From Centroscyllium fabricii (lineage: Eukaryota): a DNA stretch of 64,000 nt. Location: assembly GCA_051313645.2 (NCBI GenBank), contig JBNRSN020000045.1:6324001-6388000 (forward strand), given 5' to 3'. Below the pieces are notes generated by a model, which had not been told where the DNA came from, ran no database searches, and saw only the letters and a list, made by a program, of their open reading frames with translations. Shown in pieces: positions 3,763 to 46,948 of this stretch (position 1 is the stretch's first letter; each line of letters starts with the position of its first letter). A program made the translations under genes and the position numbers.

Positions 3763-3832
3763 CGGTAACGCCAACGGCTGCAATAACAGGGTAATAAATG
3801 TCTTCTATCTGATAGATTACTGGATATCCCAT
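3763..3832 (-). CDS. Exon 1 of a second GPR139/GPR142-like GPCR paralog (exon 2 outside the window to the left)
   Basis: ATG at 3832. Encodes MGYPVIYQIEDIYYPVIAAVGVT+G followed by a GTAAG donor. 70 nt, same length and phase as 46879-46948, 21/23 aa identical. Confidence 0.88.
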
Positions 3833-3917
3833 TTCTGTGAGGAACAGCGACTTCTGTTGGAGAGGAACCCACAGCTCCGGCAGGCTGTCTGAGTTGATTC
3901 ATTCTACTGGGCCCTGA

Positions 3918-3923
3918 TTTATA
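3918..3923 (-). promoter_or_regulatory. TATA box of GPCR paralog
   Basis: TATAAA about 86 nt upstream of the ATG. Conserved at the same spacing in the other copy (47034-47039). Confidence 0.65.
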
Positions 3924-4169
3924 CAGGGGATCATCTCCACTGACGCTTAGAGGTTATACCTCTGAGCATTGCTGTTAGTTCCAGTCACCTAAACAAACAC
4001 ATTACATCAGGACGTTTGACGCCGATGTAAATGATGTGTTGAATAAAGCACAAACATCTCAAACTCCAGGACATTATCTTCATTTGACCGCACTTCGGAA
4101 TGAGGCTGACAGATGGGCTCATACAGGAACTTCCAACAATGTAAACCGATCCAACACTCTGCAGTGAAT

Positions 4170-5210
4170 GTCCAGCCCTCCCCAAGACTCGCTCGCCCAT
4201 CACACTCGCCCTCACTGAGTCACAGTGTCTCCCAATCTGCCAAATTATTACATTTAAAATTCCTAGCCATAGGTTTAATGTCCCTCAGCCCTCGCCCTCT
4301 CCACCTTCTCCTCCAACCCTGCAGTAAATCCACCCATGCTCTGTCCACACCTCTGCCACAGGCCTCTTTCGCTGGGACTGTCTTATCTTGGTCCCAATCT
4401 TACCAATCTGATGGAAACCAGAGAATCTCCTGCAATGGCTTCTCTTCCCGCACCAGCACCGTTCACTCTCGAATCTCTGAACTTTCCATTCATGCACCTT
4501 CCTCATCCTCCTTTAAATGCTGCCCTTTCTGACATTATCTACAGACCTGGGGTCAGATTCCACATGTCTGCTGACAACACCCAGCTCCAGCTCTACACCA
4601 TCTCTCCACACTCCACTACCTAAGTGTTGTCAGACTGCAACATGTCTACATGAGCTGGGATTTGCTCCAATTAAACATTGGACAGACCGAAGCCATTACT
4701 TTAGGCCCCAACACAAACTCAATATCATGGTCACCGACTCCATCCCCCTTGCTCGCTATTATCTCAGGTTGCTTATGACGTTTGAGGCCTCTGAGCCCTA
4801 TTCGTACCGGACATGACATTCCTCCCTCATACGCTCTCCATCATAGCTGGCTCTTCTTCCGACCCCATAACATCGCCAGTCTCTGCCCCTGCCTCAGCCC
4901 ATCTGCCCCTTTAACCCTCCATCCGGCATTTACCAGCTTCAGACCCTCAGTCCTCTCCTCTGACATTGCCCTCTCGGTGGGACCTCCATGTGCTTGCTTC
5001 TACGGTTAGAGTCTGATCAGCGCCAGATAATCTCCAGCAACGGCTTCTCTCACCCTCCACCACCCTCCACAGCACCGTTCACATTGATGACTCCAAAGTA
5101 TCTATCCTAGCTCTCATTTATTCCTCTTCTACATGCCTCCCGTTGAAGCTTCCAGTGACAGATATGGGACCAGCTCTTTGATATATGTTGATGACACCAG
5201 ATTTACCTGC
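4170..5210 (+). mobile_element. Decayed L2-clade LINE fragments
   Basis: GVRFHMSADNTQL (~4550) and YVDDT (~5185) resemble the L2 RT YADDTQLY motif, and FFRPHNIASLCPCLS resembles the L2 FHLRNIARLRP.LS block. Duplicated at ~47270-48360. Confidence 0.65.
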
Positions 5211-8200
5211 CTGTTCCTCTCTGTCTGACAGTGTCTCTGTCTATCTGTCTCAGGCTCCATCGAGGATTGTTTCTCTGTTTCTGTCTGTCTCTTTCTCTCT
5301 ATTTCTGACTCTCTCTCTGTTAGTTTATCTGTCTGTGTCCTTGTCTGAATCACACTGTCTCTATCTTTGTCACACTATCCATCTCTCTGTCCCCACTCAC
5401 TCGCTCTGTCCGTCTGTCTTTGTATCGCTCTTTCACTGTCTCTGTCTCCGGATGCCTGCCTCTGTCTGGCTGTCTCTGGATTCCTGTCTCCGTGTCTCTG
5501 TCTCATTCTGTCTGAAACTCTACATCTGTCTTTGTCAGTCGTGTTTGTATTTTTGCCTCTGTCTCTCTAGCACAGTCTGTCTGTCTCTGTCCATCTGTCT
5601 CCGTCTGTCTGATTTTGTCTGTCTATCTCGGTCGGGTCTGTCTGTCTGTATGTCTCTGTTTCATTATATCTGTCTTTCAATCTCGCTTTCTGTCTCTCGC
5701 TCACTCTGTCTCTCTCTCTCTGTCTCTCTCTCTGTTTTTATGTCATTGTGTGTCTGTCCATGTCCAGCAGCTCTGTCTCTCTGCCTGTCTCAGTTTACAT
5801 ATCTGTGTCCATCTGTGTCTTTGTTTCTCTTTCTCTGTCTGTCATAGTCTGCTAGTTGTTGTCAGTCTAGCACCCTCTGCTTGTCTGTATTTCTGTCTGT
5901 CTCCATATTTCCATATCTGTCGCAGTCCGCCTCTCTCTTTCTGACTGTGTCACTGAACGTCTGTCTCCGCATGTCGGTCTCATCCTCTTTCAGCTTGGTA
6001 ATCCCTGTCCGTCTGTCTCTGTTTGTCTGTCACTGTCTGTCTCACTGTTTGCCTCTGTATGTCTATATCTCTGTCTGTCTCTGTGTTTGACTGCCACTCT
6101 CTGTCGGTCTCCGTCCTTTTTTGTTTTTATCCATTTGCCACTAACTCTCTGACTGTCTCTGTGCTTGTTAGTTTCTGTCTGACTGTCCTTAACTCTCTGT
6201 CTGCCTCTATGCTTTTCTCTGTCTGTCTCTGTCTCTCTCTTTCTTTGTGTCACAGTTTGATTGTGTCTGGCTGTGTCTGTCTCTCTCTGTCTGCCTGTCT
6301 ATATCTGTCTCTGTATCTTTGTTTGCATCAGTCTGCCTCAAGCTCTGTCTGTCTCTGCATCTGTCTGTCTTTATATAGACTGTCTGTTTCTTCTTTCTGT
6401 CTCTGTTTATCTGCGTCTATCTGCCTGTCGCTGTCTGTATCTGTCCCTTTCTGTCAGTCCGTCTCTGTCTGTCAGTCAGATTCTATCTGTCTCTCTGTAT
6501 CTCTGGCACTCTGTCTCTCTGACTCTGTCTCTCTGTCATTGTCACAGTTTGTCTCTGTCTGTCTTTATTCCTGTGTACATCTGTCTATTTTTGTATGCCA
6601 GTCTCTGTTTTTCTGACCCAGGCTCGTTGTCTGTCTCTGTCTCCTGTCCGCCTTATGCCCGTCTGTTCGCCCTCTATGACCCTCACTGACTCTCTCTGAC
6701 TCTCTCTCTCTCTGTCTCTCTGTTTCTCACTTTCTGTTGCTGACTGTGCCTCGGTCTGTCTTCGTCATTGTCTTGTTGGTCTGCATTTGCCTGACAGTCT
6801 CTGTCTCTCAGACTACCTCTGGTGACTCTGTCAGTCTGAGGATTATTCTCTCTGTACCTCTGCATATCTGATATGATTGTCTGTCCCTCTGCCTGCATGT
6901 CTCTCTCTCTCTCTATGCCTGTCTATCTCTGTCTGTCTGTCTGACTGACTCGGTCTCTTTATCTGCTGTCTCTGGCTCTGTGAGTCTGTTTCTGTCATTT
7001 TCTGTCTGTCTGAGTCTGATCCATATATTCCAGTCTCTGTAGGTCCTTTTCTCTCTGTCACACACTGTACTTTCTGTCATTGTCTGTCTTAGTATGTGTG
7101 TATGCCTCTGTCACCATCTGCCGGACTGGCTCTATCTCTCTGTATATCCCTTTCTGATCTTCATCTCAATGTGCGCCTCTGACCGTTTCTCAGTCTGTAA
7201 CAGTCTGCTTTTCTGTGTCTCTGTCTGTCCCTGTATATCGCTGTTTGCCTCTCGGTCTGTCTTCCTCTCTTTATGTGTCTGACTTCCATTTTTGTGCTTG
7301 TGTATCACTGTCTGTTTGTCTCTGTCTCTCTGGCTGCTCATTTCACTTTATTTTTATCTGTCTCTAATTGTTTCTGTCTGTGTCTCTGACTGACAGTCTA
7401 TATGTTTCGCTCTGTGTCTGTTTCCATCTGTCTGCCTGATTCTGTATGAATTCCAGCCTCTCTCTCTGTGTGTCTGTCTCTCTATATCCATGTCTCTGTG
7501 TCTCTGTGTGTTACTGTGTCTCTGACTCTCCATCTCTCGGTCTGCCTCTTTCTATCTGTCTCACTCTCTCTCTGTCTATCTCACTGTCTCTGAATGCCAT
7601 CTACCTGTGTCTCTGTGCCTGTCTATTTCTGAAGTCTCAACATCTCTGTGAATTTCTCATTTTTCCGTCTGCTTGTCTCTCTGTCTGCCTGTCTGCCTGT
7701 CTGCCTGTCTCTCTGTCTATCTCTTTCTGTATGTCCCTGACTCTGTGTATCTCTATCTGCCTGTCACTCTATGTCTCTTTGCCTGTCTCTATCTGTCTGC
7801 CTCGCCATCTCTAATCTTTCTGATGTCTCCGTCTGCCTGTCTCTCTGTCTGCCGGTCTATATGTCTACCTGTCTCTCTGTCTATCTCTTTCTGTCTGTCT
7901 CTGTATGTCTGTGTCTCTATCTGCCTGTCTCTCTATGTCTCTGTGCCTGGCTCTATGTGTCTGTCTCTCAATCACCCTGTCTTTTTAATGTCTCCATTTG
8001 CTTGTCCCTCTGTCTGCCTGTCTCTATGCCTGCCTGTCACTCTGTCTGCATCTCAGTCTGCCTGTCTCTATGTCTCCATGTCTCTGTCTCTCTTACTGCC
8101 TGCTTGTATCGGTTTCCCTATCTGCCTCTCTCTGCCTGACGGTCTGTATATCTTCCCTATGTCTCTCTCTGCCTCTCTGCCTGTCTTTCACTCTCTCTCT

Positions 8201-8900: not shown

Positions 8901-8904
8901 GAGT

Positions 8905-9972: not shown

Positions 9973-9974
9973 AA

Positions 9975-10790: not shown

Positions 10791-11889
10791 GTATTAGTAC
10801 AGGTTCAATCTCTCTCTACACGGTGCCATCAAATTCTCCCAGGGCAAGTACAGCACGATAAAAGCTCCCGCTACCCAATCCCACCACACACACCCATGGC
10901 AGGCACAGCACAGACCATCACATTTGTTATTTCCTCCCATTTCCCCCTTTCAGCCATGATCTCATTGAATGGCGGAGCAGGCTCGAGGGGCCGAATGGCA
11001 TACTCCTGCTCCTATCTTCTATGTTTCCCTGCCTCTGTACTTGCTTAAATACTGTAACAATTTCCTGTTATGATGAAGGGTCATCAAACTGAATCATTAA
11101 CTCGGTTCCTCTATCCACAGATGCTGCTTGACCTGCTGAGTAATGTTCCCTGGAAGGTGCGTGGGTGCGCGGCGATCTGTAAGGTCTTGTGCACTGAAAT
11201 TCAGAGGTGGCACAGTGAGCTGGAGCGTGCGGAGGGGCCCAATACCCAATGACCCGCGAATGCTCACAGAGCTGTTTGTGAGCGCGCACAGCCGATCCAA
11301 ATTGGAACAACATTTACTGAGATACGGAGCCCTGGAACCCGGCGAGGGTTGTCTCAGGTTCTTTTCCGTACCTTTTCCGCGGAGATGCGTGTAGCCCCTC
11401 CCCGGGGACTGAGAAGTGGCTGCACTTTGCAACAACACAGGTGGAGGTGCAGCACGTATATATTGGTACGATGGCTGCTGGAAGGAGGCGAAAGCAAACA
11501 TTTCTTAGCCCCTCGGTGGAACAAAAATATGAGCATATTTTTTTGATTCAGAAAATTGTTTCAAGTCGGAAAACGATATGGGAAAGTGATGTTGAATGTT
11601 TAGTGGTAAGCTCCAGTTCAATTTTGCCAGCGCTCATTCTCTTTTTGAAACAGTTTATCATGGTTATTTAAATCAGGTTGTGAGAAAGGGAAAATGATTT
11701 TGCTCCGTCAGTACCTCCGAGTCACAGAGATGGAACCACATGGTTTATATAATAAAGCTCTCGCTACACTGCCGCATCAAACACTGCCACCCTAACCTCA
11801 GCGCCTTCTTATGAAGTTTAATCACTTTATTCACTTTCTGATTTGAGCACCGTTCAGCACTGGTTAGCTGCAGAGTAAAGCTGAGGCTA

Positions 11890-29195: not shown

Positions 29196-29966
29196 TCCAT
29201 TAATACTTTAGCTACATAACTGACACCACACTTCATCGTATCATTCCTTGTATGGAGTGTTAGATGATATGAAGGTGGAGCTGAACAAGAGCGATTTCAA
29301 TAAAATGATTTTTAACATCGTGTCTCCATGGAGATATCAGGACAGATGTCCGAAATCTTGGAGAAGGAGGACTGCTTTATGAAGCAGAGAGTAGTAGAGA
29401 TGCAGAGAAGTTTAGGGTGGGAATTGCAATAATTAGGTTCCAGGCAGCTGTCTTTGTTCATTCTTTCTTGCTTTCCTTACTTCTTTCTTTCTCTTTGTCT
29501 CTCACTTTCTGCCTCTTTCTGTCTATCCATTTTCTCTCCATGGATGTTTCTGTCTTTTTCTGTCTCTACCTGTTTTAATCTCTGCTTCAATGAACATGTA
29601 TTAGCTTGTCACTGTATTGTGCCTCTTCAGCTTCTCTATTCTATCTTTTGCTCTGCTCCTTTTTTCTATTGAGCTGCTCTCTGTCGGTTCTGGTGTTCTC
29701 TCTGTCTTTCTCTGTCATTCTGTCAGCGGGTTAACCGCAGCCTTTTCAGGTGAAGGCCAGCTGAGCTCTTCAGCGCCCCCTTTGGACAAACAATTCATGT
29801 GTCGTCTGCAAAGTGACCCGGCTCAATGGGTCGGATTTCCCATAAAATGTGACAACTCGGGTCTGGGTCCTGCTAATGTCTAATGTACTGTCCGTCCAGT
29901 GGGGACTACAGGAGGCGGGGAATGAAATGGGCTGCAGTTCTAGTGCTTCAAACTCTTCCTCTCTTT

Positions 29967-30868
29967 CTATGATTTAACTATTTTAACAATGAGCTTGAGT
30001 GGGTATTTCACCGCGTTCTTCAGCTCCTCCCTGAATTTAGTCTGGGTCACAGCGTAAATACACGTGTTGGTGCAGGAACTGAGAACCTGCAGCATTCCTG
30101 ATGTGGATTCTGTGATATAAAGAGGGTCAGAGTAGGAGGAAGGATGCATCTTTGTAATTCGCTGATGGATGTAAAATATAACCTGTGTCACCCATAACAA
30201 TATGAAACTGCCGGTTATACTGTAGAGCAAAATGATGGATTTCTTTCGGTTCTCCATCTCTGTGTCCTTGGGATTCTCTCCATCGCTGCGGCCCCGGAGT
30301 CCCCTGCGGACTCGACTGGACAGTAAAATCCGCCTGACCGTCAGAGCATTGAGCAGCAAAATCAGGAAGAACGGGACACAAGGGGTTAAAATGCGGTGAA
30401 ACATCTCAAACGCTGCCCATGCGGGGGAAGAATAGAAACTCGGCTTAATGAAACAATCCCAGGGAACATTATCTATTATATAGCCAGGTTCAACTGTAAA
30501 GTACCAGGGGACAGACTCTAAACAGCCCAGCACACTCACTGTTCCGATCACCACTGCCGCCGTTTTCTCGGTGCAATATTTAGTTTTAAGTTTCTCACAA
30601 CAAATGGCCACAAACCGATCAAAGGTGAAAGCGACTGTGAGCCAGACAGAAACCATCGTGGTTGCAAAAATCAGGCAGATAACGAGACTACACACGGGAG
30701 TAATGAACAGGAATGAAATGGGGAGATAAAACCCACCAATCCACCTCAATATGGGATCAGTGATGACAACCAGGAGATCGGCCGCTGCCATTCCCACCAG
30801 GTAGCGAGTGATACATTTGGAGAGACCGCACTTTCCTCGGGACAGGATCACAATCGCCGCCAAGTTAA
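29967..30868 (-). CDS. Exon 2 of class A GPCR, GPR139/GPR142-like (TM1-TM7)
   Basis: Open frame with hydrophobic helices, MAAAD (TM2), DRF (TM3), PC..I.L.N (TM5), F..LW (TM6) and NTCIY (TM7). Acceptor CTTTTTCTCTCTCTTACAG lies immediately before 30868, and its phase matches exon 1. Confidence 0.95.
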
Positions 30869-30989
30869 CTGTAAGAGAGAGAAAAGGGGAATCAGAGAAA
30901 TGGCTGATCAGACGTGGAGACAAAGCAGCTGATTGACAGGATCTGGGCTGAAAGGTCCACATTTGTTGCTGCATCAAAACTGGCCAACA

Positions 30990-31150
30990 CAGCCAGGAAG
31001 TGACATCATCAAAATGCGAGCAGTTGAGGGCGGGGCTGGTGACCTCATCAAATTCGGACACTGCAGAAAGGAAGTGACATCATCAAAATGCCCACTTTAA
31101 GGGGCGGGGCTGCTGACCTTTCAAAGATTGCCACGGGAGCCAGGAAGTGA
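30990..31150. repeat. Short repeated motif cluster GGAAGTGACATCATCAAAATG / GGGGCGGGGCTG
   Basis: Alternating motifs occur 2-3 times here and again at ~33690-33790 and ~35985-36205. Confidence 0.65.
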
Positions 31151-31329
31151 TCTTGTGGAATCTGTAGATTACTAACCGGAGAGATGTGGTCCACACGCAG
31201 GAACGATTAAACAAAGGTCTTTACTCCAAACACTCGGTCAACAAAACTGACTGGACAATCTCCCGCCACATGTGATGACCGCATCATGCGTTAGCACCTG
31301 GATCCACGCTTCCCGCTCTCTTAAAGTGG

Positions 31330-33557
31330 GACTGCCCCGTACAGTGAAAGATACAACAACAGTTAAGGGGAAAGCCCCGTACAGTGAAAAGATACAATAA
31401 CAGTTAAGCGGAATGCCCCGTACAGTGAAGATACAATAACAGTTAAGGGGAATGCCCCGTACAGTGAAAAGATACAATAACAGTTAAGGGGAATGCCCCG
31501 TACAGTGAAAGATACAACAACAGTTAAGGGGAATGCCCCGTACAGTGAAAAGATACAATAATAGTTAAGGGGAATGCCCCGTACAGTGAAGATACAATAA
31601 CAGTTAAGGGGAATGCCCCATACAGTGAAGATACAATAACAGTTAAGGGGAATTCCCTGTACAGTGAAAAGATACAATAACCTTTAAGGGAATGTCCCGT
31701 ACAGTGAAGATACAATAACAGTTAAGGGGAAAGCCCCGTACAGTGAAGATACAATAACCTTTAAGGGGAATGCCCCGTACAGTGAAGATACAATAACAGT
31801 TAAGGGGAATGCCCCTTTCAATGAAGATACAATAACAGTTAAGGGGAATGCCCCGTACAGTGAAGAGATACAATACCAGTTAAGGGGAAAACCCAGTACA
31901 GTCAAGAGATACAATAACAGTGAAGGGGAATTCCCCGTACAGTGAAAATACAATAACCTTTAAGGGGAATGCCCCGTACAGTGAAGATACAATAACAGTT
32001 AAGGGGAATGCCCCGTACAATGAAGATACAATAACCGTTAAGGGGAATGCCCCGTACAGTGAAGAGATACAATACCAGTTAAGGGGAATACCCCGTACAG
32101 TGAAGAGATACAATAACAGTTAAGGGGAATGCCCCGTACAGTGAAAATACAATAACCTTTAAGGGGAATGCCCCGTACAGTGAAGATACAATAACAGTTA
32201 AGGGGAATGCCCCGTACAATGAAGATACAATAACAGTTAAGGGGAAAGCCCCGTACAGTGAAGATACAATAACAGTTAAGGGGGATTCCCCGTACAGTGA
32301 AGATACAATATCCTTTAAGGGGAATGCCCCGTACAGTGAAAGATACAATAACAGTTAAGGGGGATTCCCCGTACAGTGAAAAAATACAACTAAAGTTACG
32401 GGGAATGGCCCGTACAGTGAAGATACAGGAACAGTTAAGGGGAATGGCCCGTACAGTGAAAAGATACAATAACAGTTAAGGAGAATACCCCGTACAGTGA
32501 AGATACAATAACAGTTAAGGGGAATTCCCTGTACAGTGAAAAGATACAATAACCTTTAAGGGAATGTCCCGTACAGTGAAGATACAATAACAGTTAAGGG
32601 GAGAGCCCCGTACAGTGAAGATACATTAACCTTTAAGGGGAATGCCCCGTACAGTGAAGATACAATAACAGTTAAGGGGAATGCCCCTTTCAATGAAGAT
32701 ACAATAACAGTTAAGGGGCATGCCCCGTACAGTGAAGAGATACAATACCAGTTAAGGGGAAAACCCAGTACAGTGAAGAGATACAATAACAGTGAAGGGG
32801 AATTCCCCGTACAGTGAAAATACAATAACCTTTAAGCGGAATGCCCCGTACAGTGAAGATACAATAACAGTTAAGGGGAATGCCCCGTACAATGAAGATA
32901 CAATAACAGTTAAGGAGAATGCCCCGTACAGTGAAGAGATACAATACCAGTTAAGGGGAATACCCCGTACAGTGAAGAGATACAATAAAAGTTAAGGGGA
33001 ATGCCCCGTACAGTGAAAATACAATAACCTTTAAGGGGAATGCCCCGTACAGTGAAGATACAATAACAGTTAAGGGGAATGCCCCGTACAATGAAGATAC
33101 AATAACAGTTAAGGGGAATGCCCCGTACAGTGAAGAGATACAATACCAGTTAAGGGGAAAACCCAGTACAGTGAAGAGATACAATAACAGTTAAGGGGAA
33201 TGCACCGTACAGTGAAAAGATACAATAACAGTTAGTGGGATTGCCCCATACTTTGAATATACAATAACAGTTAAGGGGAATGCCCCGTATAGTGAAAAGA
33301 TACAATAACAGTTAAGCGGAATACCCCGTACAGTGAAGATACAATAACAGTTAAGGGGAATGCCCCGTACAGTGAAGAGATACAATACCAGTTAAGGGGA
33401 ATACCCCGTACAGTGAAGAGATACAATAACAGTTAAGGGCAATGCGCCGTATAGTGAAAAGATACAATAACAGTTAGTGGGATTGCCCCATACTTTGAAT
33501 ATACAATAACAGTTAAGGGGAATGCCCCATATAGTGAAAAGATACAATAACAGTTAC
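31330..33557. repeat. 39-41-bp minisatellite, about 55 copies, in GPCR intron
   Basis: Unit GTTAAGGGGAATGCCCCGTACAGTGAAGATACAATAACA. Variant runs recur about 872 bp apart (31651 vs 32523). Confidence 0.97.
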
Positions 33558-33794
33558 ATTTGTGCCTAACACCCTAGTAGAATATCCGAAGGATGTTATG
33601 AGTCTGTTAATGAGAATTGTGCACATAAATGTTATATACAGCTACAAACAACGGATGGTGGTCCTGTCACAATATTATCGAAAAGGCTGCCGTGGGGAGG
33701 GAGGCTGCTGACCTCATCACAAATGGGCACCGCCTCCAGGAAGTGCAATCAGCAAATCGGCCGTAGTTGGGGGCACAGCAGCTGACATCCTCAC

Positions 33795-35700
33795 ATAAGA
33801 ATATGTGAAATAAGAGCAGGAGTAGGTCATTCGGTTCGCGAGCCTGTTCCGCCATTCAATAAGTTAATGGCTGACCATTGAACTCAACTCCACTTTACCG
33901 CCCCATCTCCATATCACTTGATTCCCCTAAAGGCCCAAAATATGTCTATCGCAGCCAGGAATATAATCAACAACTCTGCATTTACACCCCGCTGGGGCGG
34001 AGAATTCCAAAGATTCACAACCGTCTGAGTGAAGAAATTCCTCCTCATCTCAATCATAACTGGCTGACTCTTTATCCTCAGACTCTGCCCGCTAGTTCTA
34101 GACGCACCAGCGAGGGAAACAACCCTTCAGCATCTACTCTGTCAATCTCTTTCAGATTTTTGTAAAGTTCAATGAGATCACATCTCATTCTTCTAAACTC
34201 CAGATCATGGGATCATTCTGCACAATGTCTCCTCATAGGACATCCTTCTCATCCCAGGGATCAATCTAGTGAACCTTGGTTGCACCGTCTCCAAGGCAAG
34301 TATATCCTTCCAAATATATGGAGCCCAGAACTGTGCCCAGTATTCCAGGTGTGGTCTCACCAAGGCCCTATAGATTTGTAGCAGGACTTCCTCCCCCCAT
34401 TAGTCCACCCATTGTAATTACAGGATAATACACCATTGGTCTTCCTTATTTCTTACTGTTCCTGTAGGCTGGATTTAAGTGTTTCTTGCACGAGGCAAAA
34501 TAAATATCTCTGAACACCAACACTGGAAATTTTCTCACCATTGAGAATATATTCTGGTTTTCTATTCTTGCTACCAAATTGAAATATCTCACATTTCCGA
34601 CATTATGCTCCATCTCTCAACTTACGGCCTACTCAATTAGTTTATCTATAACCATTTGCAGGCACGTTGTGTTCTCCTCACGGCTTACTGTCCCACCTAG
34701 TTTTTTATCATCAGAAAAGTTGGATACCACACTCGGTCCCTTCATCTAGGTCATTAATGTGGATTGGATGGAAATAGCTGGAGCCCCAACACAGATCCTT
34801 ACGGCATCCCACTAGTACCAGCCTGCCAACCGCAAAAAGATCAGTTCATCCCGACTCTCTGTTTTCTGTCCGTTACCCAATCCTCTATCCCGCTACCCAA
34901 ACAGCCCGAATCGTGTGTAATAGTTTTTTATTTGTAAACATATCGATTGCCTTAACGGAATCCAAAACAAATAGATCAACCTGTTCCCCTTTATCGACCC
35001 TGTTGGTTAGATCTTCAAACGACTCCAATAAAGTTATCAAACATAATGTCGCTTTCATAAAACCAGTTTGATTCTGCCCAGTCATGTTATGATTTTCTAA
35101 GTGACTCGATACCACCTCCTTAACAATGGGTTTCAGCAGATTCCTGACCATTGATGTCAGGCTGACTGGCCTGTCGTTCCTTGTTTTTTTATTATTTCAC
35201 TCCCTTCTAGAATAGCAGCGTTGCATTTGGGACGTTCCCATCCGCTGGGGACTCTCCAGAATCTAGGGAATTTTGGAAGACAACATCAATGCATCCAATA
35301 TCACTTCAGCAACCTCTTTTAGAACCCTAGCCGCTGATTATCCACTGATGAGCTTTAATCCATGTTTTCCAGTCTATCTCTGCAAACTCGCCCCTCATAC
35401 CTAAGTAATTGGCTTTATTTCTGTTTAAGAATATTGTATTAGACTTAGACAAGTCACTCTTAAAATCAATGTAAAATTCTATTATATTATGATCACTCTG
35501 CCCCAGAGTGTTCTTTAATATGAGATTGCTAATTAACCCTTTCTCTTTAAGCGATATGAGATATGAAATAACCTGATCCCTGGTTGGTTCCATGACTTAT
35601 TGTTCTACGAAACTGTCCTGGAAACGTTGCATGAAATCTTCCTCCACACTAACTTGCCAATTTGTTGTGTCCAGTTTATATGAAGATTAAAGAGCCCAAG
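33795..35700 (-). mobile_element. Decayed CR1 LINE
   Basis: CR1 3' tail at 33795-33870, RT remnants, and an endonuclease C-terminal LGQSDHNIIEF motif at ~35500. Confidence 0.82.
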
Positions 35701-36419
35701 ATTATTGCATTTCCTTTCTTGAAAGCTCCTATCAAAGCCCTAGTTATTCGATTCGCCAGGACACTGGTCCTAACCTGGTTTATGCAGAGCCATTCCCGAT
35801 GGAACAGCTCAATCCTACCACAGTGCGGCTGTAAAAACAATACACCATTATTTGAGCCAGGCATTTACCTCTCTGATCTGCTTGTCCCTATGCCTATTTA
35901 CGAGTGGCTCAGGAAGCAATCGAGAGATTCTGCTTTTAATTTAGATCAATAATGACCGCTGACTCCTTGATGATACATTAGCAAAATGTCCGTAGTTGGG
36001 GGCATGGCTGGTGACTTCATCAAAAGTGGATGCGACCAGGAAATTGCATCATCAAAATGGTCGCTGGGCAAGAGGCAAGGCTGGAGTCCTCCTCAAAACT
36101 GGCCACCACCGGTACGGAGCAACATCATCAATATAGCCAATGTTGCGGGTGGAGCTGGTGAACTCGGCAAAAATGGACTCCGCCACCAGGAAGTGACATA
36201 AAAATGACCGATAATAAACGGACCAGGGCAGCAATATCTGGCAGGGAAATGCTTGCAACACAAGGGATTATATTAAGCGTAGTACGGGGCATGGCAGCTC
36301 CGCATTTTGGCGTGCTCCTCCTGTGAACTGTGGGGTGACCGGAAGACAGATGCAGATACTAGGGCATGTAACATTGGAAAATAACACAACATTAAAACTA
36401 CAACCAGGTAGCCAAAGAC

Positions 36420-36725
36420 GGTTACAAATCGCGATAGATCATATGGACAACGTGAGCAAGTTGGTAGCCATTAACCTAGGCAAATAGCGTGGAGAAATAA
36501 AGCGATATTATGAAAAGAGGCAAAACCATTTGAGTATGTCATTGGAGGCCGTGTAATTTTAGAAAACTCCTCACCAAAAAAACACACACTCGAGATAAAT
36601 TGGACGGGTCCTCATACCAGAATAGATCAATTAACTATTGCTGTGTATCTACTGAATGCCCATGGGGTCCGAGAGGAGAACCTAAACTGAAATGTTTCCA
36701 TATCAATCAGATGAAAACTGTTCAG
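36420..36725 (+). pseudogene. Integrase C-terminal remnant of the env-bearing LTR element
   Basis: Broken frames read KRYYEK / PFEYVIGGRVILENSSPKKHTLEINWTGPHTRIDQLTIAVYLL / FHINQMK, a GPY/F-type integrase tail. Confidence 0.6.
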
Positions 36726-37049
36726 AATTAAGATGATATATTTTGGTTTACCCACAGGTTATAGATGTGTCTCCATATGCTGAAACTGAAAAATGGATGT
36801 GCAGTCTGTTCTCCGAAGGTAACAAAACTTTTCCATTGTCATTAACATCTGTACACTGGACGAAGGAGGCAGATGCGCCTTAATCTCCATCTAAGGAATG
36901 GAACATCGAAATGTTGGCGGACATAAACAATCAAAGAACGATAACAGTAGCAAATTACTGTGAATGCTGGAAATCTGAAATAACAACAGGAAAAGCTGCG
37001 AATATGCAGCAGGACAGGCGGCATCCGTGGAGAGAGAAACAGAGTTAAT

Positions 37050-38775
37050 GTCTTCACAGAGGAGGACACAAATAGCCTCCCAGAGATGTCGGGAAACATA
37101 GGGACTAATGAGAGGGAGGAACTGAAAGAAATCAATATCTCTAAGGATATGGTGTCCGGGAAATTGAAAGGATTAAAGGCCGACAAATCGCCAGGGCCTG
37201 ATAATCTGCATCCTAGGGTGCTTAAGGAAGTGGCCCTGGAGATATCAGATGCTTTGAGGATCATTTTCCAGAACTCAATAGACTCTGGAATGGTGCCCAG
37301 GGATTGGAGGGTAGCTAATGTTACCCCACTATTCAAAAAGGGGGGTAGAGAGAAGGCGGGGAATTATAGACCGGTAAGTCTTACATCAGTTGTGGGCAAC
37401 ATGCTAGAGTCCATTATTAAGGACGTAATAGCAGATCACTTGACTAAGAGTGATGGGATCGGACACAGTCAACATGGATTTACAAAAGGTAAATCGTGCT
37501 TGACTAATCTATTGGAATTCTTCGAGGATGTAACCGATAAAATAGATAGGGGAGAGCCAGTAGATGTGGTTTATCTGGACTTCCAGAAAGCCTTTGACAA
37601 GGTCCCTCATAGGAGATTGGCAGGAAAAATTAAGGCTCATGGGATTGGGGGCAAGGTATTGGCGTGGATAGAGAACTGGTTGGCAGATAGAAAACAGAGA
37701 GTTGGGATAAACGGGTTGTTTCCTGATTGGCGGGCAGTGACTAGTGGGGTACCACAGGGGTCGGTACTGGGACCCCAGCTGTTCACAATATATATTAATG
37801 ACCTGGATGAGGGAATTGGATGTAACATCTCCAAATTCGCAGATGACACTAAGCTTGGAGGGGGAGTATGCTCTGAGGAGGATGTCGGGAAGCTCCAGAG
37901 TGACCTGGACAGATTGGGGGATTGGGCGAACACATGGCAAATGCACTATAATGTGGATAAATGTGAGGTTATCCACTTTGGTAGCAAAAACAGAAAGGCA
38001 GAGTATTATTTGAACGGCAATAGATTGGGAGATGGGGAAGTGCAAAGAGATCTGGGTGTTCTTGTGCACCAGTCACTGAAGGTGAGCATGCAGGTGCAGC
38101 AGGCGGTCAAAAAGGCAAATGGTATGTTGGCCTTTATATCAAGAGAGTTTGAGTATAGGAATAGGGATGTCTTGCTGCAGCTGTATAAGGTCTTGGTGAG
38201 GCCCCACCTTGAGTATTGTGTGCAGTTTTGGTCGCCGCATCTGAGGAAGGATGTTCTTGCCATGGAGTGAGTACAGCGACGATTCACCAGGCTGATACCT
38301 GGGCTGGCAGGAATGACTTATGAGGAGAGATTGTGTAGTCTGGGCTTATACTCGCTGGAGTTTAGAAGATTAAGAGGGGATCTCATCGACACTTATAAAA
38401 TTCTGTCAGGCTTGGACAGGTTAGATGCAGAAAGGATGTTTCCGATGGCCGGGGAGTCGAGAACCAGGGGGCATAGTCTAAGGATAAGGGGTAAGCCTTG
38501 TAGGACTGAGATGAGGAGGAAATTCTTCACACAGAGAGTGGTGAACCTGTGGAATTCCTTGCCACAGAGGGCGGTGGAGGCCGGTTCATTGAATATATTC
38601 AAGAGGGAACTGGATATATTTCTTCAGGCTAAAGGGATTAAGGGATATGGGGAGAAGGCAGGGACTGGGTACTGAACGTGTAAGATCAGTCATGATCTCA
38701 TTGAATGGCGGAGCATGCTAGAAGGGCCGAATGGCCTACTCCTGCTCCTATCTTCTATGATTCTATGATTCTATG
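37050..38775 (+). mobile_element. Young 5'-truncated CR1/HER1-like LINE
   Basis: RT ORF 37086-38675 broken by a single in-frame TGA at 38268-38270. (TTCTATGA)n tail. Very similar to 18174-19998. Confidence 0.96.
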
Positions 38776-38993
38776 TTTCAGGCCAGTGACCCTCCATCAG
38801 AACTGGAAAAAGCTGGGCATGTAGCAGATATTTAGCACGAGCAGAGCCTGGGGGGGGGGGGTCGTGGTCTAGGAGGGGAGGGAGGAATCCCTGACCCCAT
38901 TTTTCAGGCTGTATGATATTGCAATTCTCCTTTGCAACATTTTATCATTCCTGCCTCTTACATAAGCACAATCTGTTATTTGAATTCCTTCCT

Positions 38994-39028
38994 TTTCTGA
39001 TGAAGGTTTCCAATCCTGAAACGTTAAC
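38994..39028 (+). ncRNA. Putative minimal hammerhead ribozyme core
   Basis: CTGATGA-AGG tttccaat CCT-GAAA-CGT-T-AAC with palindromic ACGT stem III. Stem I is partly decayed. Confidence 0.5.
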
Positions 39029-39093
39029 GCTGTTTCACTCTCCACGGATGCTGACTGGGCTGCTGAGTATTTCCACCATTTTCTGTTGTTATT

Positions 39094-41012
39094 AAAGAAC
39101 TATAACGGATCATCCGAGACGTATGAGGGGGATGTTCCAGTTTGGATCAGAAATAGTACAAAAGATAATTTAACAAAACCTTACTTGACGGGTTGTTGTA
39201 CATTGCAGGAAAAGGTGTACAATTGGGAAATAAAAGAAGGATGTGGTGTGTGTACCAGGAGCGGAATAAGGAACAGGAGAGGCCCAAATGTGTGGAAATT
39301 CCCCAGGAAAATAATGGAATCTGGGAAAAGTTACAAAAATCAAATCAGGGATTAGAAGCTTCGGAAAGTATGGGATCTTTACAACTATGCTGACCTCGGT
39401 GGTGAAGCAAACTTTCCCGCCAGTATTCTTGTAGTTAGACAACAATTGTCATCGGCTTTAAAAATCAGGATGTTGATTGGCCTCATATTTCCAAAAATGA
39501 TGTAATGTTTACGTCAGCAGGATATGAGATTCCCGCAGACCGTATAGAGATCACGCTGACAGAACGTAAATCATGTATGATGACTTTTAAACATGACAGA
39601 AATGATAGAGATTTAGGGAATACATATAGCATTTAGCATAATGGAATTCGACAATGCAGTAACTGAATGTGTAGGGGACGATGGGCATGTCTATAGTTCT
39701 AAGCATACAGCCTATTATACAGCAAGTCAGTCAGAACCACGAGAGGGTGTACCCGAGGAACAATGTCCCCAATTGTCATCAGGTCCTGGGAGCGGTCTTG
39801 CAATTATACCCACCTATAAAGCAGTGTATCATCAAGTAATACCAGAAGTGCTCCCTGTTATACTAAATTTAACAGAGGCAATAATTCCAAAATGTTGCCC
39901 TGACAAAACAGCACAACTAACTCAGAGATGCTGCAGTAGGTTTTTAATTAGAACTGAGAAAATGCGACCTTAACTTTCAGTACAGAGGAAGCAGACATGC
40001 CTCTGATCAAGCAGCCCATAATGACGTATGCATTAGTTACGGGAATTGGCTGATTGAACAAACTTGGGAAAGCCTTCATACCATCAATCAGGGACGTCTC
40101 TCCACTTTGGTCACTAATAAATATTTAACAGGGCTATCCAATCACTGTGATGATGCAGAACCATGTAAGATCCAGAGTTTGATTAGGACCCACCCTGTCA
40201 AGCACGAATGCCACAAGGTATGGAGTCAAAGGTTGATGGGACCAATACTACACATTCCTAATCTAATGACTCGAACTGGCCCTAAAACTTTATTTAGGAT
40301 AGAGAATATATGAGCAGTACAGGGGAATAATATTGCCCGATTTCTCACGGCACTACAATGGCAAGTCCAATTAGGAAAACTAACATGGATTGAACCAAAC
40401 TTCCAGGGATGCAATAGAACCGAGGATGCCTTTGTCTATCCATACAGTTTATATGACCAATCAAAGAATAGCTGTGGATATGGTTGCAGTGAAGAAAGAT
40501 TAAACTTTACTATGGAAGTGCCAGGCCCTTCAGATATAAGAATTAGAACAGCCTAAATATGAGAACGGAGGAATTGTTTTACCACTTTAGAAAACTCATG
40601 TAGTCATGGGACACTTGAATATTCAACAGCCTATGGACACACTGTATGAGCACTGCAAAGACTACGGTAATAGGAGGAAGAATTGTCCTTGTAATAGCCT
40701 CAAATGGCCAGAAATTACCACAGGTAGAAGATAATTTTAAAATAAATCTAGAAGATTATGTCACAAGATTTGGATCTGACATCCCTGAACTACCTGAAGC
40801 ATTAACCGAGCTAATAGGTCAAGGGTGTACCACTCAACAACTTTATCATACATTGGTGCAAGGAAATAAATAAATAGCTGAGGATATTCCAGACATCTAG
40901 ATCCAGACCCAATGCTGGGATATAGGAACAAATATGGAAATTTCTCCTTGGATTAGAATAAGTTCACATGTGCTGGTCCCAACTAAAATTACTAATATGC
41001 TTACGACTATAG
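39094..41012 (+). pseudogene. Decayed env-like (class I fusion protein-like) ORF of LTR element (copy 2)
   Basis: Broken frames with N-glycosylation sequons and Cys clusters (EVLPVILNLTEAIIPKCCP; LHTINQGRLSTLV; ILHIPNL...LFRIENI; EPNFQGCNRTEDAF..P...SCGYGC) and a C-terminal hydrophobic anchor. Lies between the integrase tail and a putative LTR. Confidence 0.6.
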
Positions 41013-41219
41013 ACCTGCTAACGGAAGCACCTGATACAAAATCACGTTAAAATATGATCACGACCCAAAAAACCTCAGAGTTACACACATGAAAGGGAAC
41101 TAATCCATATGTATGAGTTTAGTTTGGAGGGGTCGGCAAACGCCTCACCCTCAATGTAGGGATTTGGAGAATAAGGTTATTTGTATGATTTAGTAAAATA
41201 ATTTTGTATATATTTAATA

Positions 41220-41908
41220 TGTGATATATATGCCAAACGCTTGTAAGCCTGAATAAAATGGAGAATGACTGAGAGAAAAGCAGAGTGGGAAAATAAGCCA
41301 AACTGAATGAAACCTGCTCTGTTTTCAGTTACTGAAGGAATGGAATGAAATGCTAAATTTCTGGGGACTATCAGGAACGTGCTATTCAGTAATATGATAG
41401 AAAATTGATAAAATAATCACCTCTCAGTGATAACATTACAAAATAGACAGATTGTTTGGACAACATCTTTGGAAATTATCTTTGGAAAGAGAATATCTAA
41501 AGACAACAGGCACTTTGATATGAACAAAATGTCCCTAGTGGACTCAACATGGTCATTAATCATGTACCAGGTTCCGGAGAGCTTTCTGCAGCCAGTGAGG
41601 CACAAGGGAAAACGTGTATAAAGTTACAGATATTGAACACTGAAGGCAGCACGAACCTTGAATCAGAGTTAAAGGAAATTCAGTTAAATAAAAGCAGCAA
41701 GAGGATAAAGAGACCGCGCCTCCTTCACTCGGAAGGAATGCCAAAGCTCAAACGAACAAGACTGTGACTCTCTCCTTGTTAATTATTACTTCTCTGTGCT
41801 GGAAGTTTAATGCTTCATAAACCTGTTTTACATATATACAATATACCTGTACCCAGAGTGATTCGTGCAGTCACTGACAGATTATTATAAGAGCTTTTGG
41901 AAGTTACA
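41220..41908 (+). mobile_element. Putative 3' LTR of env-bearing element (copy 2)
   Basis: TGT...ACA-bounded block matching 827-1516. Confidence 0.5.
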
Positions 41909-42817
41909 AGACTGAAGGCGGGGAAGTTTGGTGACAGGGGGAGTTGAATTTAGTTTGATGCTCTGGGTTAAGGGAGCCGAAAGTGGCTTTCACTAAACGG
42001 GAAGAAGTAACTTGGGGGCGGGTCAGTGAGTGAGATTGGGAGGGAGAGATGGAAAAGGACATGTGGGAGCTGGAGGAGGGTCAGGAGCTGAGGGTTTGGG
42101 AAAGCGGACAAACTGAAACAGCGGATGAGGAGACAGAGGATTCAATGCAGGGGGAGGAGAGACTGGGCTTCACAGGGAGAGACTGCAGCAGAGTGGGAGA
42201 GGAAATCTGATTCATGATCCCAGCAGCACAACTCAAACAATACATCCAACCATTAATTTATGTGGCTTTTCGTGCCAGTGAACAGCGCACTATGGACAAA
42301 ATGTCTTAAATTAATTTAATCAACACATTTAATTAAAAAAATAAACTATATTAATTAAATCAAATACGTTCTTTACTGAATTCCGCTGATCCAGAGTGCT
42401 TAAAATACAATATTCTAATAATACATTACAATCAATAAATCACTGATTTTATTCTATAACTACATTAGTCCAATCATTGAATCAGAAATGTAAACATTCA
42501 CCAAAACAGACTGAGGAACTCAACGTGATAAGATTTCACAAACTGCCAACATGATAATATCACTTTCAAATCTCATTTCCACATTATAACTGGACTGGAA
42601 GTTTCAGCAGATCATTGGAAAGGATTAGTCACAGGGCAGCCCAGCCTCTCTCGCCGTCTGTCTTAGATTTACAATGATTCTAGCAGCAAACTGACGATAT
42701 ACTATCAGGGTGAACTGTCTGGGTCCCTTTTTTTGAAAAGGTAAGTTTGATGTGTGACCTACTAGAGCGCTTCAAAATGATGAACGACTTTGAAATCGTA
42801 GAGACAGTGAGAGTGTA

Positions 42818-45133
42818 ATTCAGCAGAGGAGGACGAAGGGCTTACTTAAGGCAGGGAAAATAGAATATGAAAGGAAGCTTGCAGAGAACATTAAAACTGA
42901 CTGCAGAAGCTTCCATAGATATGCAAAGAGAAAGAGGTTAGTAAAAACAAACGTAGGTCCCCTGCAGTCAGAATCAGGGGAAGTCAAAAGGGGGAACAAA
43001 TAAATGGCAGATCAATTGAACAAGTACTTTGGTTCGGTATTTACTAATGAGGACACAAACAACCTTCCGATCATAAAAGGGGTCAGAGGGTCTAGTAGAA
43101 AGGAGGAGCTGAGGGGAATCCTTATTAGTCGGGAAAATGTGTTGGATAAATTTATGGGGCTGAGTGCTGATAAATTCCCAGGGCCTGATGGTCTGCATCC
43201 CAGAGTACTCAAAGAGGTGGACTTGGAAATAATGGATGCATTGCCGATCGTTTTCCAACATTCCATAGACTCTGGATCAGTTCCGATGGAGTGGAGGGTA
43301 GCTATTGTAATCACACTTTTAAAAAAAGGAGGGAGGGAGAAAACAGAGAATTACAGCCTGACATCGGTAGTGGGTAAAATGATGGAATCAATTATTAACG
43401 ATGTCATTGCAGTCCATTTGGAAAGTGGTGACATGATAAGTCCAAGTCATCATGGATTTGTGAAAGGGAAATCATGCTTTGCAAATCTTCTGGAATTCTT
43501 TTAGGATGTTTCCAATAGAATAGACAAGGGAGGTCCAGTGGATGTGGTGTACTTGGAATTTCAGAAGGCTTTCGACCAGATCCCACACAAGAGATTGGTG
43601 TGCAAAGTTAAAGCACATGGGATTGGGGGTAATGCATTGACGTGGATTGACAGCTGCTTGGCACACAGGAAACAAAGAGTAGGAGTAAATGGGCAGTTTT
43701 CAGAATGGCAGGCAGTGACCAGCGGGAAATTGCAAGATTCGGTGACGGAGACCCAGCTGTTTACATAATATATTAATGATTTGGACGCAGCGATTAAATA
43801 TTGTATCTCCAAATTTGTGGATAACACTAAATTGGAAGGCAGTGTGAGCTGCGAGAAGGATGCGAAGAGGCTAGAGTGATTTGGACAGGTTAGGTGAATG
43901 GACAAATATATGACAGATAGAAGTACAATGTGGATAAATGTGAGGTTATCCACTTTCGTGGTAAAAATAGAAAGACAGACTATTATCTGAATGGGGACAG
44001 ATTAGGGAAATCGGAGGTGCAACGAGACTTGGGCGTTATGGTACATCAGTCACTGAAGGTGGAAATGCAGGTACAGCAGGCAGTTAAGAAAGCAAATGGC
44101 ATGGAAACATAGAAACATAGGAGCAGCAATAGGACATTCGGCCTTTCTCCGCCATTCAATGTGATCATGGATAATCATCCAAACCCAGCACCCTATCCCT
44201 GCCTTCTCCCCATACCAGTATCGAGCATGCACCGAAATATATCCCACCCTATCCCCATAACCCCACATATTCAATTCTCTTAACAGTATGGTTCAATTTA
44301 TCATGGCCAATAAACCTAACCCACACATATTTGGACTGTGGGAGGAAACCGGTGCAGTCGGAGGAAACCCACACAAACACGGGGAGAATGTGCAAACTCC
44401 ACACAGATGGTACCCGTGGCTGGATTTGAACCCGGGTTTCTAGTACTGTGAGGCAACAGCGCTAACCACTATGCAACCGTACCGCCACATGTTGGCCTGC
44501 ATGGCGAGGGGATTTGAGTACAGGAGTAGGGAGGGTTTGCTACAGTTGTACAGGGACTTGGTGAGGCCACACTTGGAGTATTTTGTGCAGTTTTGGTCTC
44601 CTAACTTGAGGAAGGCCATTCTTGCTATTGAGGGAGTGCAGCAAAGGTTTACTAGATTGATTCCCGGGATGGCCTGACTGAAACATCAAGAAAAACTTGA
44701 TCAACTGGACTTGTATTCTCTGGAGTTCAGAAGAATGAGTGGGGATCACATAGAAACGTTTAAAATACTGACCGGTTTAGACAGGTTAGATGCGGGCGGA
44801 ATGTTTCCAATGTTGGGCAAGTCCAGAACCAGAGGGCACAGACTAAGGAAAAGGGGTAAGCCATTTAGGGCAGAGAGGAGGACAAACTACTTCACCCAGA
44901 GAGTGTTGAACCTGTGGAATTCTCTACCACAGAATGTTGTTGAGGCCAGTTCACTAAATATATTCAAAATGGAGTTAGATGTAATACTTACAACTGGGGG
45001 ATTAAGGGACATGGCGAGAAAGCAGGAATGGGGCACTGATGTAGCATGTTCAGGCATGAACTTATTGTATGGCGGTGCAGGCTCGAAGGGCCGAGTGGTC
45101 TAATCCTGCACCTATTTTCTATGTTTCTATGTA
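42818..45133 (+). mobile_element. CR1/HER1-like LINE, decayed, specific to duplication copy B
   Basis: RT motifs across broken frames and a TTTCTATG tail. The empty site in copy A at ~2420 reads AGAGTGTATATAATGG. Confidence 0.92.
44104..44487 (-). mobile_element. HE1-like SINE nested in CR1
   Basis: tRNA-like head (B-box GGTTCAAATCC), V-domain and CTATGTTT tail. CATG duplicated at 44100-44103 and 44488-44491. Confidence 0.9.
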
Positions 45134-45445
45134 TACAATGGTGGGAAGAGCTTAGTTAGAGACCACATCAATATAAGATATGCACCAAGAAATCAGGCAG
45201 GAAATTCTGGAGAAACTTCTTTACCCAGAGATTGGTGAGAATGCGGAAATCGCTATAACAGGGAATGGTTGATGTGACTTGCATTCGTGCATTTTAAGGG
45301 AGGCCAGATAAGCGTATTAGCGAGAATGGACTAGAGAGTTATGACAATAGAATTAGTTGAGGAAGGATAGGAGGGGGCTCCAGTGGAGAATAATTGCTGG
45401 GTTGGAATAGTTGGGCCGAATCTCCTTTTTCTGTGCCGTATCATA

Positions 45446-45761
45446 GAATAGAATCATAGAATCCCTACAGTGCAGATAGAGGCCATTTCGGCCCATCGAG
45501 CCTGCACCGACACATATCCCACCCTATCCCCAAAACCCCCACAAATTTAACTCCCCAAAAACTAAGGGTCAATTAAATGGCCAAACAACCTAAACCACAC
45601 ATCTTTGGACGGTGGGAGGATGGCTGGGCACCCGGAGGAAACCCACTCAGACATGGGGAGAATGTGCAAACTCCACACAGATAGTCACCCGAGGCCGGAT
45701 TTGAACCCGGGTCTCTAGTGCTGTGAGGCAACAGTGCTAACCACTATGCCACCGTGCCGCC
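45446..45761 (-). mobile_element. V-domain SINE, specific to copy B
   Basis: Head GGCGGCACGGTGGCATAGTGGTTAGCAC, B-box GGTTCAAATCC and TTCTATGA tail. Absent at the equivalent site ~2735. Confidence 0.88.
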
Positions 45762-46878
45762 CATATATCCTATGCAATGCTACCTATCTATCTTTTTCTA
45801 AGTCTCGATCTCTATTAATCCCCACTCTAGTTCTCCTTCTCTTTCCATTTCTCTAGTGCTGCGCTCTATCTCTCCGCATCATCTCCTATTTCTTGCTCAA
45901 TAGATTTGTTCATGTCATCCCAACATGCTGCGCCTGCATTATGTTCACTATTCCCCTTTTCAATGACTCTATTCTGATAATCAGTAGCTTCGTTGCTGAG
46001 GCCCCTTTGAATAGCTGTGTGTTCCTGCACATCACCCAAATCTTCAGCTGATCACCTGCATTGATCTGCAGTGCATACAATAAACAGAACCGAATATCTC
46101 TGCCAGAAACAAATGACAATAATTGAAGTTACTTCTCCTGTAATTTAAAGGTCCAGCATTAGATGGCGTGGTTGTTCAAAATCACCGCTGCTAATTATAA
46201 TCTCCATAGCAACAGAAGGGCTCCTGATTGCAACAGATACAGTGGAAACTATTGCAACATAACCTCAAAATATTTCTTTTTATGATAAATTCCAGTGTCA
46301 GCAAGTGAATCCACCCACACTGAATCAGAGAAGGAGATGTGAAGGAGTCAGCAACAACCGCAGTTCAGTCGCCAGCCTTCTGAAGCGGAGTCAGATACAC
46401 ACAGAATGAAAAGATATTTCACAACGGTGAGAACCAATCACACAATTAAATCCAAGATAAACTGAATCACGTTGCTGGGGAGGGAGGACATCGAGGCGGT
46501 GAGCTGTCTCAGTATCAATCACACAAAGCACAATTAGGAATAAAGATTAGATGACAGGTGTGTTCCACAACATAAATCTGACAACAGCTCCTGATGGTCT
46601 GATACCCGCTCTGAGCCCAGATTCCTGAGTAACCTGGTTCCAATAGATTCAGTGCAGGGAATGATCCAGTAACATTGCTACGGTTGAAACCACAAAGATC
46701 ATTACAGATATAACAATATTCCTACAAGACCACACGAGCAGAAACTGAGGACATCCCATCATTCAGCTGCTGGAACAGAACAGCCGGTTGTGGAAAACAT
46801 TCATCGAGTTAATCATTCCCAATGCAGCAGCACACTCAACACCGATTTTCACCATTGACAGTTGAGATACCCGCTTAC

Positions 46879-46948
46879 CGGTAACACCAACGGCTGCAAT
46901 AACAGGATAGTAAATCGCTTCTATTTGTAAGATGACAGGATAGCCCAT
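46879..46948 (-). CDS. Exon 1 of GPR139/GPR142-like GPCR (joins 29967-30868)
   Basis: Encodes MGYPVILQIEAIYYPVIAAVGVT+G then a GTAAG donor. G+TT gives Val in frame with exon 2 and completes TM1 (YYPVIAAVGVTVNLAAIVIL). Confidence 0.92.

Follow-up and report, generated by a model that had tools for sequence, protein, structure and literature searches.

What kind of receptor repertoire does a gene on a 64,000-nucleotide stretch of the Centroscyllium fabricii genome (contig JBNRSN020000045.1 of assembly GCA_051313645.2, positions 6,324,001 to 6,388,000) belong to, and what would such a repertoire sense? This whole stretch, called the window here, contains the gene for a class A GPCR (G protein-coupled receptor), which we call gene A, and, on the same strand, a second copy of its short first exon, which we call copy B. 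The original prediction, made from the DNA letters, described the locus as a tandem cluster of two-exon receptors resembling GPR139 and GPR142 within a lineage-expanded repertoire. In our sequence analyses, gene A is nested in an expanded elasmobranch clade of GPR139-like receptors.

The gene model has two coding exons (coordinates are listed in Table 1), the first of which encodes a short N-terminus and the outer half of transmembrane helix 1 (TM1). The intron acceptor is a pyrimidine tract followed by AG, with its last base at 30869, and splicing of exons 1A and 2A gives, in phase, a stop-free protein of 323 aa. N-termini of three independently annotated shark proteins match both first exons (tblastn, E 4e-10 to 4e-7) and have no other match within the window. 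With two of these three, which come from RefSeq, the spliced gene A product can be aligned over residues 1 to 322-323 with a single gap, at 80% and 75% identity. Because annotated shark N-termini match both exons and the spliced protein aligns end to end, the exon 1 matches are not due to chance. Coordinates, phase, intact spliced frame and alignment to shark proteins all agree with the two-exon model proposed earlier, and gene A is, as judged from its sequence, an intact and functional two-exon class A GPCR gene.

A 364-aa open reading frame (ORF) covering exon 2 had been thought to start in intronic sequence, and its GTG start at 31061 does lie within the intron (the stop-to-stop frame is 370 aa). 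As a single-exon protein this ORF is disfavoured, because TM1 hydropathy drops from 2.23 to 1.58 and because an exon-1-like stretch stands directly before Asn1.50 in 63 of 120 listed homologues. From 3652 candidates, the search for homologues yielded 2628 clusters, and all homologue figures reported here rest on the best 120 of these 2628. A minor intronic start may also be in use at gene A.

Exon 2 is recognised as Pfam 7tm_1 (E 4e-22, 79 bits against a cut-off of 30.5), whereas family-specific profiles of olfactory receptors (OR), TAAR, V1R, V2R, T1R and T2R are not matched, Pfam returning 7tm_1 only. Its structural model is a seven-helix bundle with a mean predicted local distance difference test score (pLDDT) of 68, and all 49 listed Foldseek matches of this model are class A receptors, with GPR139 at rank 29; the predicted model and the fold search confirm the class only, and the fold search is uninformative within class A. 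The residues D54 (D2.50), D107-R108-F109 (3.49-3.51), C83 (C3.25), C162 (extracellular loop 2) and W249 (W6.48) are present, each being found in 117-120 of the 120 listed homologues, and P5.50, N7.49 and Y7.53 are also intact in the gene A protein. Threonine occupies both 6.50 and 7.50, so that the canonical P6.50 and the NPxxY proline are both absent; the replacement of P6.50 by Thr is seen in 107 of 119 shark proteins.

By sequence, the nearest solved structure is GPR139 (PDB 7vug and 9m42), with E 1e-9 and 41 bits for the single sequence and E 4e-17 and 65 bits for the family profile, and GPR139 is the top PDB match for the gene A protein, for the family profile and for two groups of single-copy relatives. 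These PDB matches place the gene A protein within the GPR139/GPR142-related group in a wide sense. The two coding exons of gene A are separated by an intron in TM1 just before Asn1.50. Human GPR139 likewise consists of two exons (PMC7318219), and it lacks the NPxxY proline. The same profile gives only 65 bits with human GPR139 versus 212 bits with P0217 (the newt Pleurodeles) and 178 bits with P0231 (coelacanth), representatives of the two single-copy groups, and on this ground gene A is judged not to be a GPR139 orthologue; true GPR139 orthologues are reported to be 70-96% identical to the human protein across bony vertebrates (PMC7318219). The GPR139/142-like label given at first stands as far as the nearest solved structure is concerned and does not extend to GPR139 orthology. 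The agonist site of GPR139 is described as E3x32, F3x33, H5x43, W6x48, R6x51 and N7x38 (PMC7318219). Three of these six residues are kept in the gene A protein (F91, H181 and W249) and I90, Q252 and G281 differ, when the register of TM5 is set by an ungapped P5.50/N5.58 anchor; the profile alignment to GPR139 shifts TM5 by three, with gaps. Since there is no GPR139 orthology and only three of the six agonist-site residues are found, the sensing of aromatic amino acids, known from the responses of GPR139 and GPR142 to L-Trp and L-Phe (PMC7318219), is not simply transferable to gene A.

All named matches of the family (119 among the best 120 of 2628) are from sharks, rays or skates, 13 species in total as assigned by hand, and no chimaera protein is found among the named matches listed. 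At least 45 matches from Heterodontus francisci (horn shark), at least 37 from Heptranchias perlo (sharpnose sevengill shark) and at least 14 from Mobula hypostoma are included in the best 120 of 2628, and at 90% core identity at least 43 (43/45), 34 (34/37) and 13 (13/14) of them, respectively, are distinct. Matches from the horn shark seemingly share contigs (seven on one and six on another, counted by eye), which fits several clusters. The canonical start, a Met with Asn1.50 at residue 25, is found in 49 of the 120 listed homologues, as in the spliced gene A model; because the short first exon is easily missed, the remaining models look mis-modelled. In a tree of 66 rows, the expanded set forms a clade of 45 rows with support of 100/96, and its sister is a group from amphibians and sturgeon (98/90); in a 24-row tree under a mixture model, the corresponding values are 97/97 for the expanded clade (10 rows) and 89/84 for the sister link. 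Both trees gave long-branch warnings and were rooted on distant representatives without GPR139 and GPR142 proper, and some rows of the expanded clade were placed there by similarity. Deep subfamilies of the clade are common to sharks and batoids. The lineage-expanded repertoire of the original prediction has in this way gained copy counts, a tree and a control for pocket variability.

Two groups of mostly single-copy relatives are important for judging which traits came with the expansion. In the P0217 group, 20 amphibian species are represented by a single cluster each, sturgeon likewise has one, and no amniote or teleost is found among its 25 matches. It shares with gene A 34% identity, the short N-terminus and the absence of P7.50, but it has one cluster per amphibian species, an almost invariant pocket and a retained P6.50. 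Relatives of P0231 are found in sharks, ray-finned fishes, amphibians, turtles and squamates, with no mammal or bird among the named matches (both among the best 120 of 145 matches). This second group resembles gene A in 30% identity, a short N-terminus and Thr at 6.50 (78/86), but it is a separate clade with mostly one copy per species, in which W6.48 is mostly absent, and sharks have their own orthologue in it (P0270, P0273 and P0277). Two of its members, P0273 (shark) and P0371 (frog), are named “transmembrane protein 183A isoform”, which hints that the gene adjoins TMEM183A. A very short N-terminus and NTCIY in place of NPxxY had been offered as signs of expansion, and neither survives the comparison: GPR139 and both single-copy groups are also without P7.50, and Asn1.50 is mostly at residue 25-28 in the single-copy relatives. 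Because these relatives have both traits, the traits are ancestral and give no argument for expansion, and the missing P7.50 is read as a trait of the group that is compatible with class A. Placing the two single-copy groups in one clade was rejected (p-AU of the approximately unbiased test 0.004), the grouping having been chosen after the first tree was seen. Three extra sets of GPR139/142-type genes have been described in coelacanth, gar and fishes, in a text that makes no mention of sharks (PMC6504862), and the P0231 group is possibly one of the GPR210-type sets of that report. The whale shark GPR142 orthogroup holds 70 proteins in 35 taxa and is not the expansion (PMC8455134, supplement). 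In the same supplement, the 7tm_1 orthogroups OG0000365 (157 proteins in 12 taxa) and OG0000181 (199 in 17) have no entry in the human gene list, and either could correspond to the expanded family.

Among the best 120 homologues, column entropy is 1.50 bits in the outer half of the receptor versus 0.60 bits in the inner half (125 versus 148 columns, P 2e-16). Since outer halves are more variable in many receptors, the single-copy groups were used as controls, and 25 pocket-facing positions, numbered by offsets from motifs, were compared after leaving out one shark-type match, 34 matches of the P0231 group, and the sturgeon and four elasmobranch matches of the P0217 set. Pocket and non-pocket entropies are 2.00 versus 0.89 bits in shark proteins (n = 119; cytoplasmic face 0.51), 0.04 versus 0.56 bits in amphibian proteins (n = 20) and 0.72 versus 1.27 bits in the P0231 group (n = 86). 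In samples of 20, the pocket/non-pocket ratio is 2.25 for sharks, 0.07 for amphibians and 0.57 for the P0231 group, the last being more diverged overall (median identity 58% versus 68%). Because the ratio exceeds one in sharks and is below one in both control groups, the expanded family alone has its greatest variability in the pocket. A variable pocket with a conserved cytoplasmic face is the sequence pattern expected of a many-ligand repertoire. In the amphibian proteins (P0217 and P0388-P0406) the pocket is strongly polar, with Arg, Lys, Asp, Glu, Asn, Tyr and Trp positions fixed in 20/20, and this fixed polar pocket suggests one conserved ligand for the sister gene.

These residues also bear on the idea that the copies sense endogenous metabolites or hormones, as in the amino acid sensing of GPR142 in gut and pancreas or the habenular signalling of GPR139, and that duplication served dosage or a division between tissues. 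The gene A protein has the hydrophobic floor of the GPR139 site, and the floor residues F3.33, H5.42 and W6.48 are found in 58, 85 and 120 of the best 120 homologues, respectively. On the other hand, gene A has I, Q and G in place of the polar residues E3.32, R6.51 and N7.39 of the site, positions that are highly variable across the family (2.5-3.4 bits), one-ligand receptors keep their pocket fixed as the amphibian sister does, and a single ligand does not call for dozens of copies, so that we regard this explanation as quite improbable.

Whether the window itself contains a cluster depends on copy B. Positions 3-5723 match 40407-48879 in the same orientation with 85-88% identity in three blocks, and the match picks up again at 5728-5834 versus 54632-54736. 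The second exon 1 reported earlier is found with its L7Y and A11D changes, ATG, donor and TATA motif. No second exon 2 or clear remnant of it was detected in the window by tblastn and a six-frame profile search (best other match, independent E value 1.1), and, with the spacing in copy A as a guide, any exon 2B would lie about 9.5 kb to the left of base 1. Of the tandem receptor cluster first proposed, the tandem segmental duplication is upheld, and the window holds only one complete gene and a lone exon 1. That exon 1B might serve gene A as another first exon was considered and rejected, as on the minus strand it comes downstream of exon 2A. Exons 1A and 1B differ at 11 nt, 9/11 of them at third positions, with proportions of synonymous and nonsynonymous differences of 0.45 (pS) and 0.07 (pN) and a pN/pS of 0.16 (neutrality P about 0.001-0.008). 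Exon 1B looks constrained, in keeping with purifying selection, and copy B is probably a second working paralogue that arose by tandem segmental duplication, as judged from 22 codons. As side observations, 10/11 of the differences are within codons 2-14 (46907-46943 versus 3791-3827), silent-site divergence in exon 1 (0.45) exceeds flank divergence (0.11; P 0.002), and the codon 2-14 patch may be a conversion from a more distant paralogue, but three other such patches are present in the 2.8-kb block.

Both copies carry a TATAAAT motif 91 nt upstream of their ATG. The segment of promoter and 5' untranslated region (UTR) is 95% identical between A and B; since the whole aligned block is already 89% identical, conservation of the TATA motif is weak proof of a promoter. 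In both copies, an out-of-frame ATG (47018 in A and 3902 in B, minus strand) is present 70 nt upstream of the start codon, and it probably lies just before the transcription start, because it is 21 nt after the start of the TATA motif. The putative 5' UTR also has a run of mostly pyrimidines that ends in CAG and resembles a splice acceptor, and an upstream non-coding exon is possible.

At such a locus, the expansion might for the most part have come about neutrally, through segmental duplication driven by repeats, the redundant copies then drifting because constraint on them was relaxed. The density of long interspersed nuclear elements (LINEs) and long terminal repeat (LTR) elements, and the fact that copy B is visible only as exon 1 and flanks, are in line with this. 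However, exon 1 is under purifying selection by the test above, deep subfamilies are common to sharks and batoids, and several core residues are invariant in 120/120 listed homologues while the pocket varies, and drift would not localise change in this manner; we hold a neutral origin, too, to be quite improbable.

We consider that one ancestral GPR139-related gene would have stayed single in amphibians and become a birth-and-death family in elasmobranchs. Each copy, without an N-terminal domain, would bind small ligands of its own in the upper part of the helical pocket; the kept floor of F3.33, H5.42 and W6.48 makes short peptides or molecules of hydrophobic or aromatic character possible candidates, and all copies would share one G protein, Gq/11 by analogy with GPR139. 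The chances appear about even that this repertoire serves to detect chemicals from outside the body in a chemosensory epithelium, be it of the nose, the taste organs, the skin or the gut lining. Duplicated copies, species-specific expansions, a variable pocket and a conserved cytoplasmic face are features also of vertebrate chemoreceptors (OR, TAAR, V1R/ORA, V2R, T1R and T2R) and of nematode srw receptors, but the expanded shark family is not a member of the vertebrate families by sequence, and the likeness is in the genomic pattern alone. A short N-terminus is also typical of OR-type receptors. The srw expansion in nematodes is related to FMRFamide/myosuppressin receptors, and environmental peptide sensing was speculated by its authors (PMC2576165); Atlas look-alikes carry the Srw domain. 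A link has been drawn between GPR139 and the MIP, proctolin and FMRFamide receptors of invertebrates (PMC12208981), and a “probable GPR139” gene is reported to be highly expressed in a snail osphradium (PMC10638732), which is an analogy only.

Several points weigh against external chemosensing or against the argument that leads to it. The loss of P6.50 means that activation may differ from GPR139, the pocket positions were numbered from motifs and not from a ligand-bound structure, and setting paralogues against orthologues tends in itself to give more variability among the former. The amphibian-sturgeon gene is likely, but not firmly, the sister of the elasmobranch expansion (89/84 under the mixture model), and copy B may be a partial duplicate, because its exon 2 is not seen in the window. 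In the catshark study, a top-50 list for brain and olfactory epithelium contains no GPCR, although this is compatible with low-level expression (PMC11979771). In addition, variable pockets and birth-and-death evolution would fit equally well immune or somatosensory sentinel receptors, that is, internal receptors by which leukocytes, mast-like cells or somatosensory neurons detect microbial or damage-related peptides, as mammals do with MRGPRs or formyl peptide receptors. The orthogroup of MAS1 and related genes, to which the MRGPRs belong, is reportedly absent from cartilaginous fishes (PMC8455134), and a sentinel role would be left vacant in them because of this reported absence; peptide receptors are also included in the wider receptor group (PMC12208981). 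Against such a role, no immune-type neighbours are found, the long ORFs tested in the window being retroelements only, and GPR139 outranks chemoattractant receptors in sequence searches. We take the sentinel role to be rather unlikely. Within external chemosensing, a more specific and rather doubtful proposal is that the copies form a so far unrecognised fifth vertebrate olfactory receptor family, which elasmobranchs would have recruited independently out of a GPR139-related receptor and which would be sparse in olfactory neurons.

Genes of this type are already present in RefSeq as “probable GPR139”, and such shark models share with gene A 75-80% identity over the whole spliced protein, a length of 323-324 aa and the same N-terminus; these are, however, automatic labels with no described family, and many of the models miss the short first exon. 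No description of the elasmobranch expansion, its single-copy sister or the pocket signature was found in the literature covered, which leaves out most subscription journals. The term “gpr” does not occur in the main text of the catshark sensory genome paper (PMC11979771), and no name of the family occurs in the searchable supplement files of PMC12361510 (11/12) or PMC13188829 (8).

Other elements of the window are mostly repeats (Table 1), including many shorter LINE copies spread through it, and the long ORFs tested encode only retroelement proteins. The Ty3/Gypsy-type element has LTRs of 98.5% identity, TG...CA ends and a 5-bp target duplication, and is located 1.9 kb upstream of exon 1A. 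Because the matching site in copy B is empty, this element was inserted in copy A after the duplication and is hence recent.

Table 1. Coordinates of gene A, copy B and other features in the window (position 1 is the first base of the window).
Feature	Position	Strand	Details
Exon 1 of gene A, coding	46948-46879	minus	70 nt, 23 codons + 1 nt; phase-1 GT donor
Intron of gene A	30869..46878	minus	16,010 nt; many LINE fragments and 39-bp minisatellite
Exon 2 of gene A, coding	29967..30868	minus	Val24 to stop; inner TM1 to helix 8; phase 1
Intronic read-through, source of false 364-aa ORF	30869..31061	minus	Outside mature gene model
Putative core promoter and 5' UTR, gene A	46949..47045	minus	TATAAAT 47039-47033; function inferred
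Candidate polyadenylation signal	29574..29579	minus	ATTAAA, about 390 nt after stop; weak
Exon 1 of paralogue B, coding	3832-3763	minus	L7Y, A11D; ATG and donor intact
Putative core promoter and 5' UTR, paralogue B	3833..3929	minus	TATAAAT 3923-3917
Segmental duplicate, copy B	3..5834		Same orientation as copy A; exon 1B and flanks
Segmental duplicate, copy A	40407..48876		Exon 1A and flanks; about 2.3 kb LINE-type sequence (42818-45129) inserted, not in B
Ty3/Gypsy-type LTR retroelement	48877-54629	minus	Full-length, chromodomain; gag 53040-54170 and pol 49567-53130, both open
39-bp minisatellite	31328-33556		About 56 copies, within gene A intron, 460 nt from acceptor
Tandem arrays between the two genes	11889-12811, 14273-14593, 14870-15849		66-67-bp unit (three blocks) and 49-bp unit (20 copies)
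LINE reverse transcriptase frames	18275-20053, 36984-38675		592 aa confirmed by Pfam; 428 and 134 aa similar by blastn
Imperfect self-inverted segments	21265-21935, 25113-25307		79% over 674 nt and 82% over 198 nt; possibly non-autonomous DNA transposons

Of the vertebrate groups in one survey, cartilaginous fishes are reported to possess the fewest olfactory receptors (10 species with 20-62 complete genes, on average 43.8), despite having many olfactory neurons (PMC10869828). They are also reported to be relatively poor in GPCRs, for which the whale shark paper uses the word “paucity” (PMC8455134). The paralogue count, with at least 43 distinct copies in one shark among the best 120 of 2628 clusters, is about the whole of this reported mean olfactory repertoire, and surveys restricted to the six known chemoreceptor families would leave these copies uncounted. 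The old puzzle of the small repertoire becomes directly testable: if the copies do form a fifth olfactory family, this family would be at least as large as the known olfactory receptors of sharks taken together and would explain many olfactory neurons with a mean of about 44 receptor genes. The single-copy amphibian sister with its fixed pocket provides a route to the ancestral ligand. Even if the role proves to be immune or somatosensory, the family would still be a large undescribed receptor radiation.

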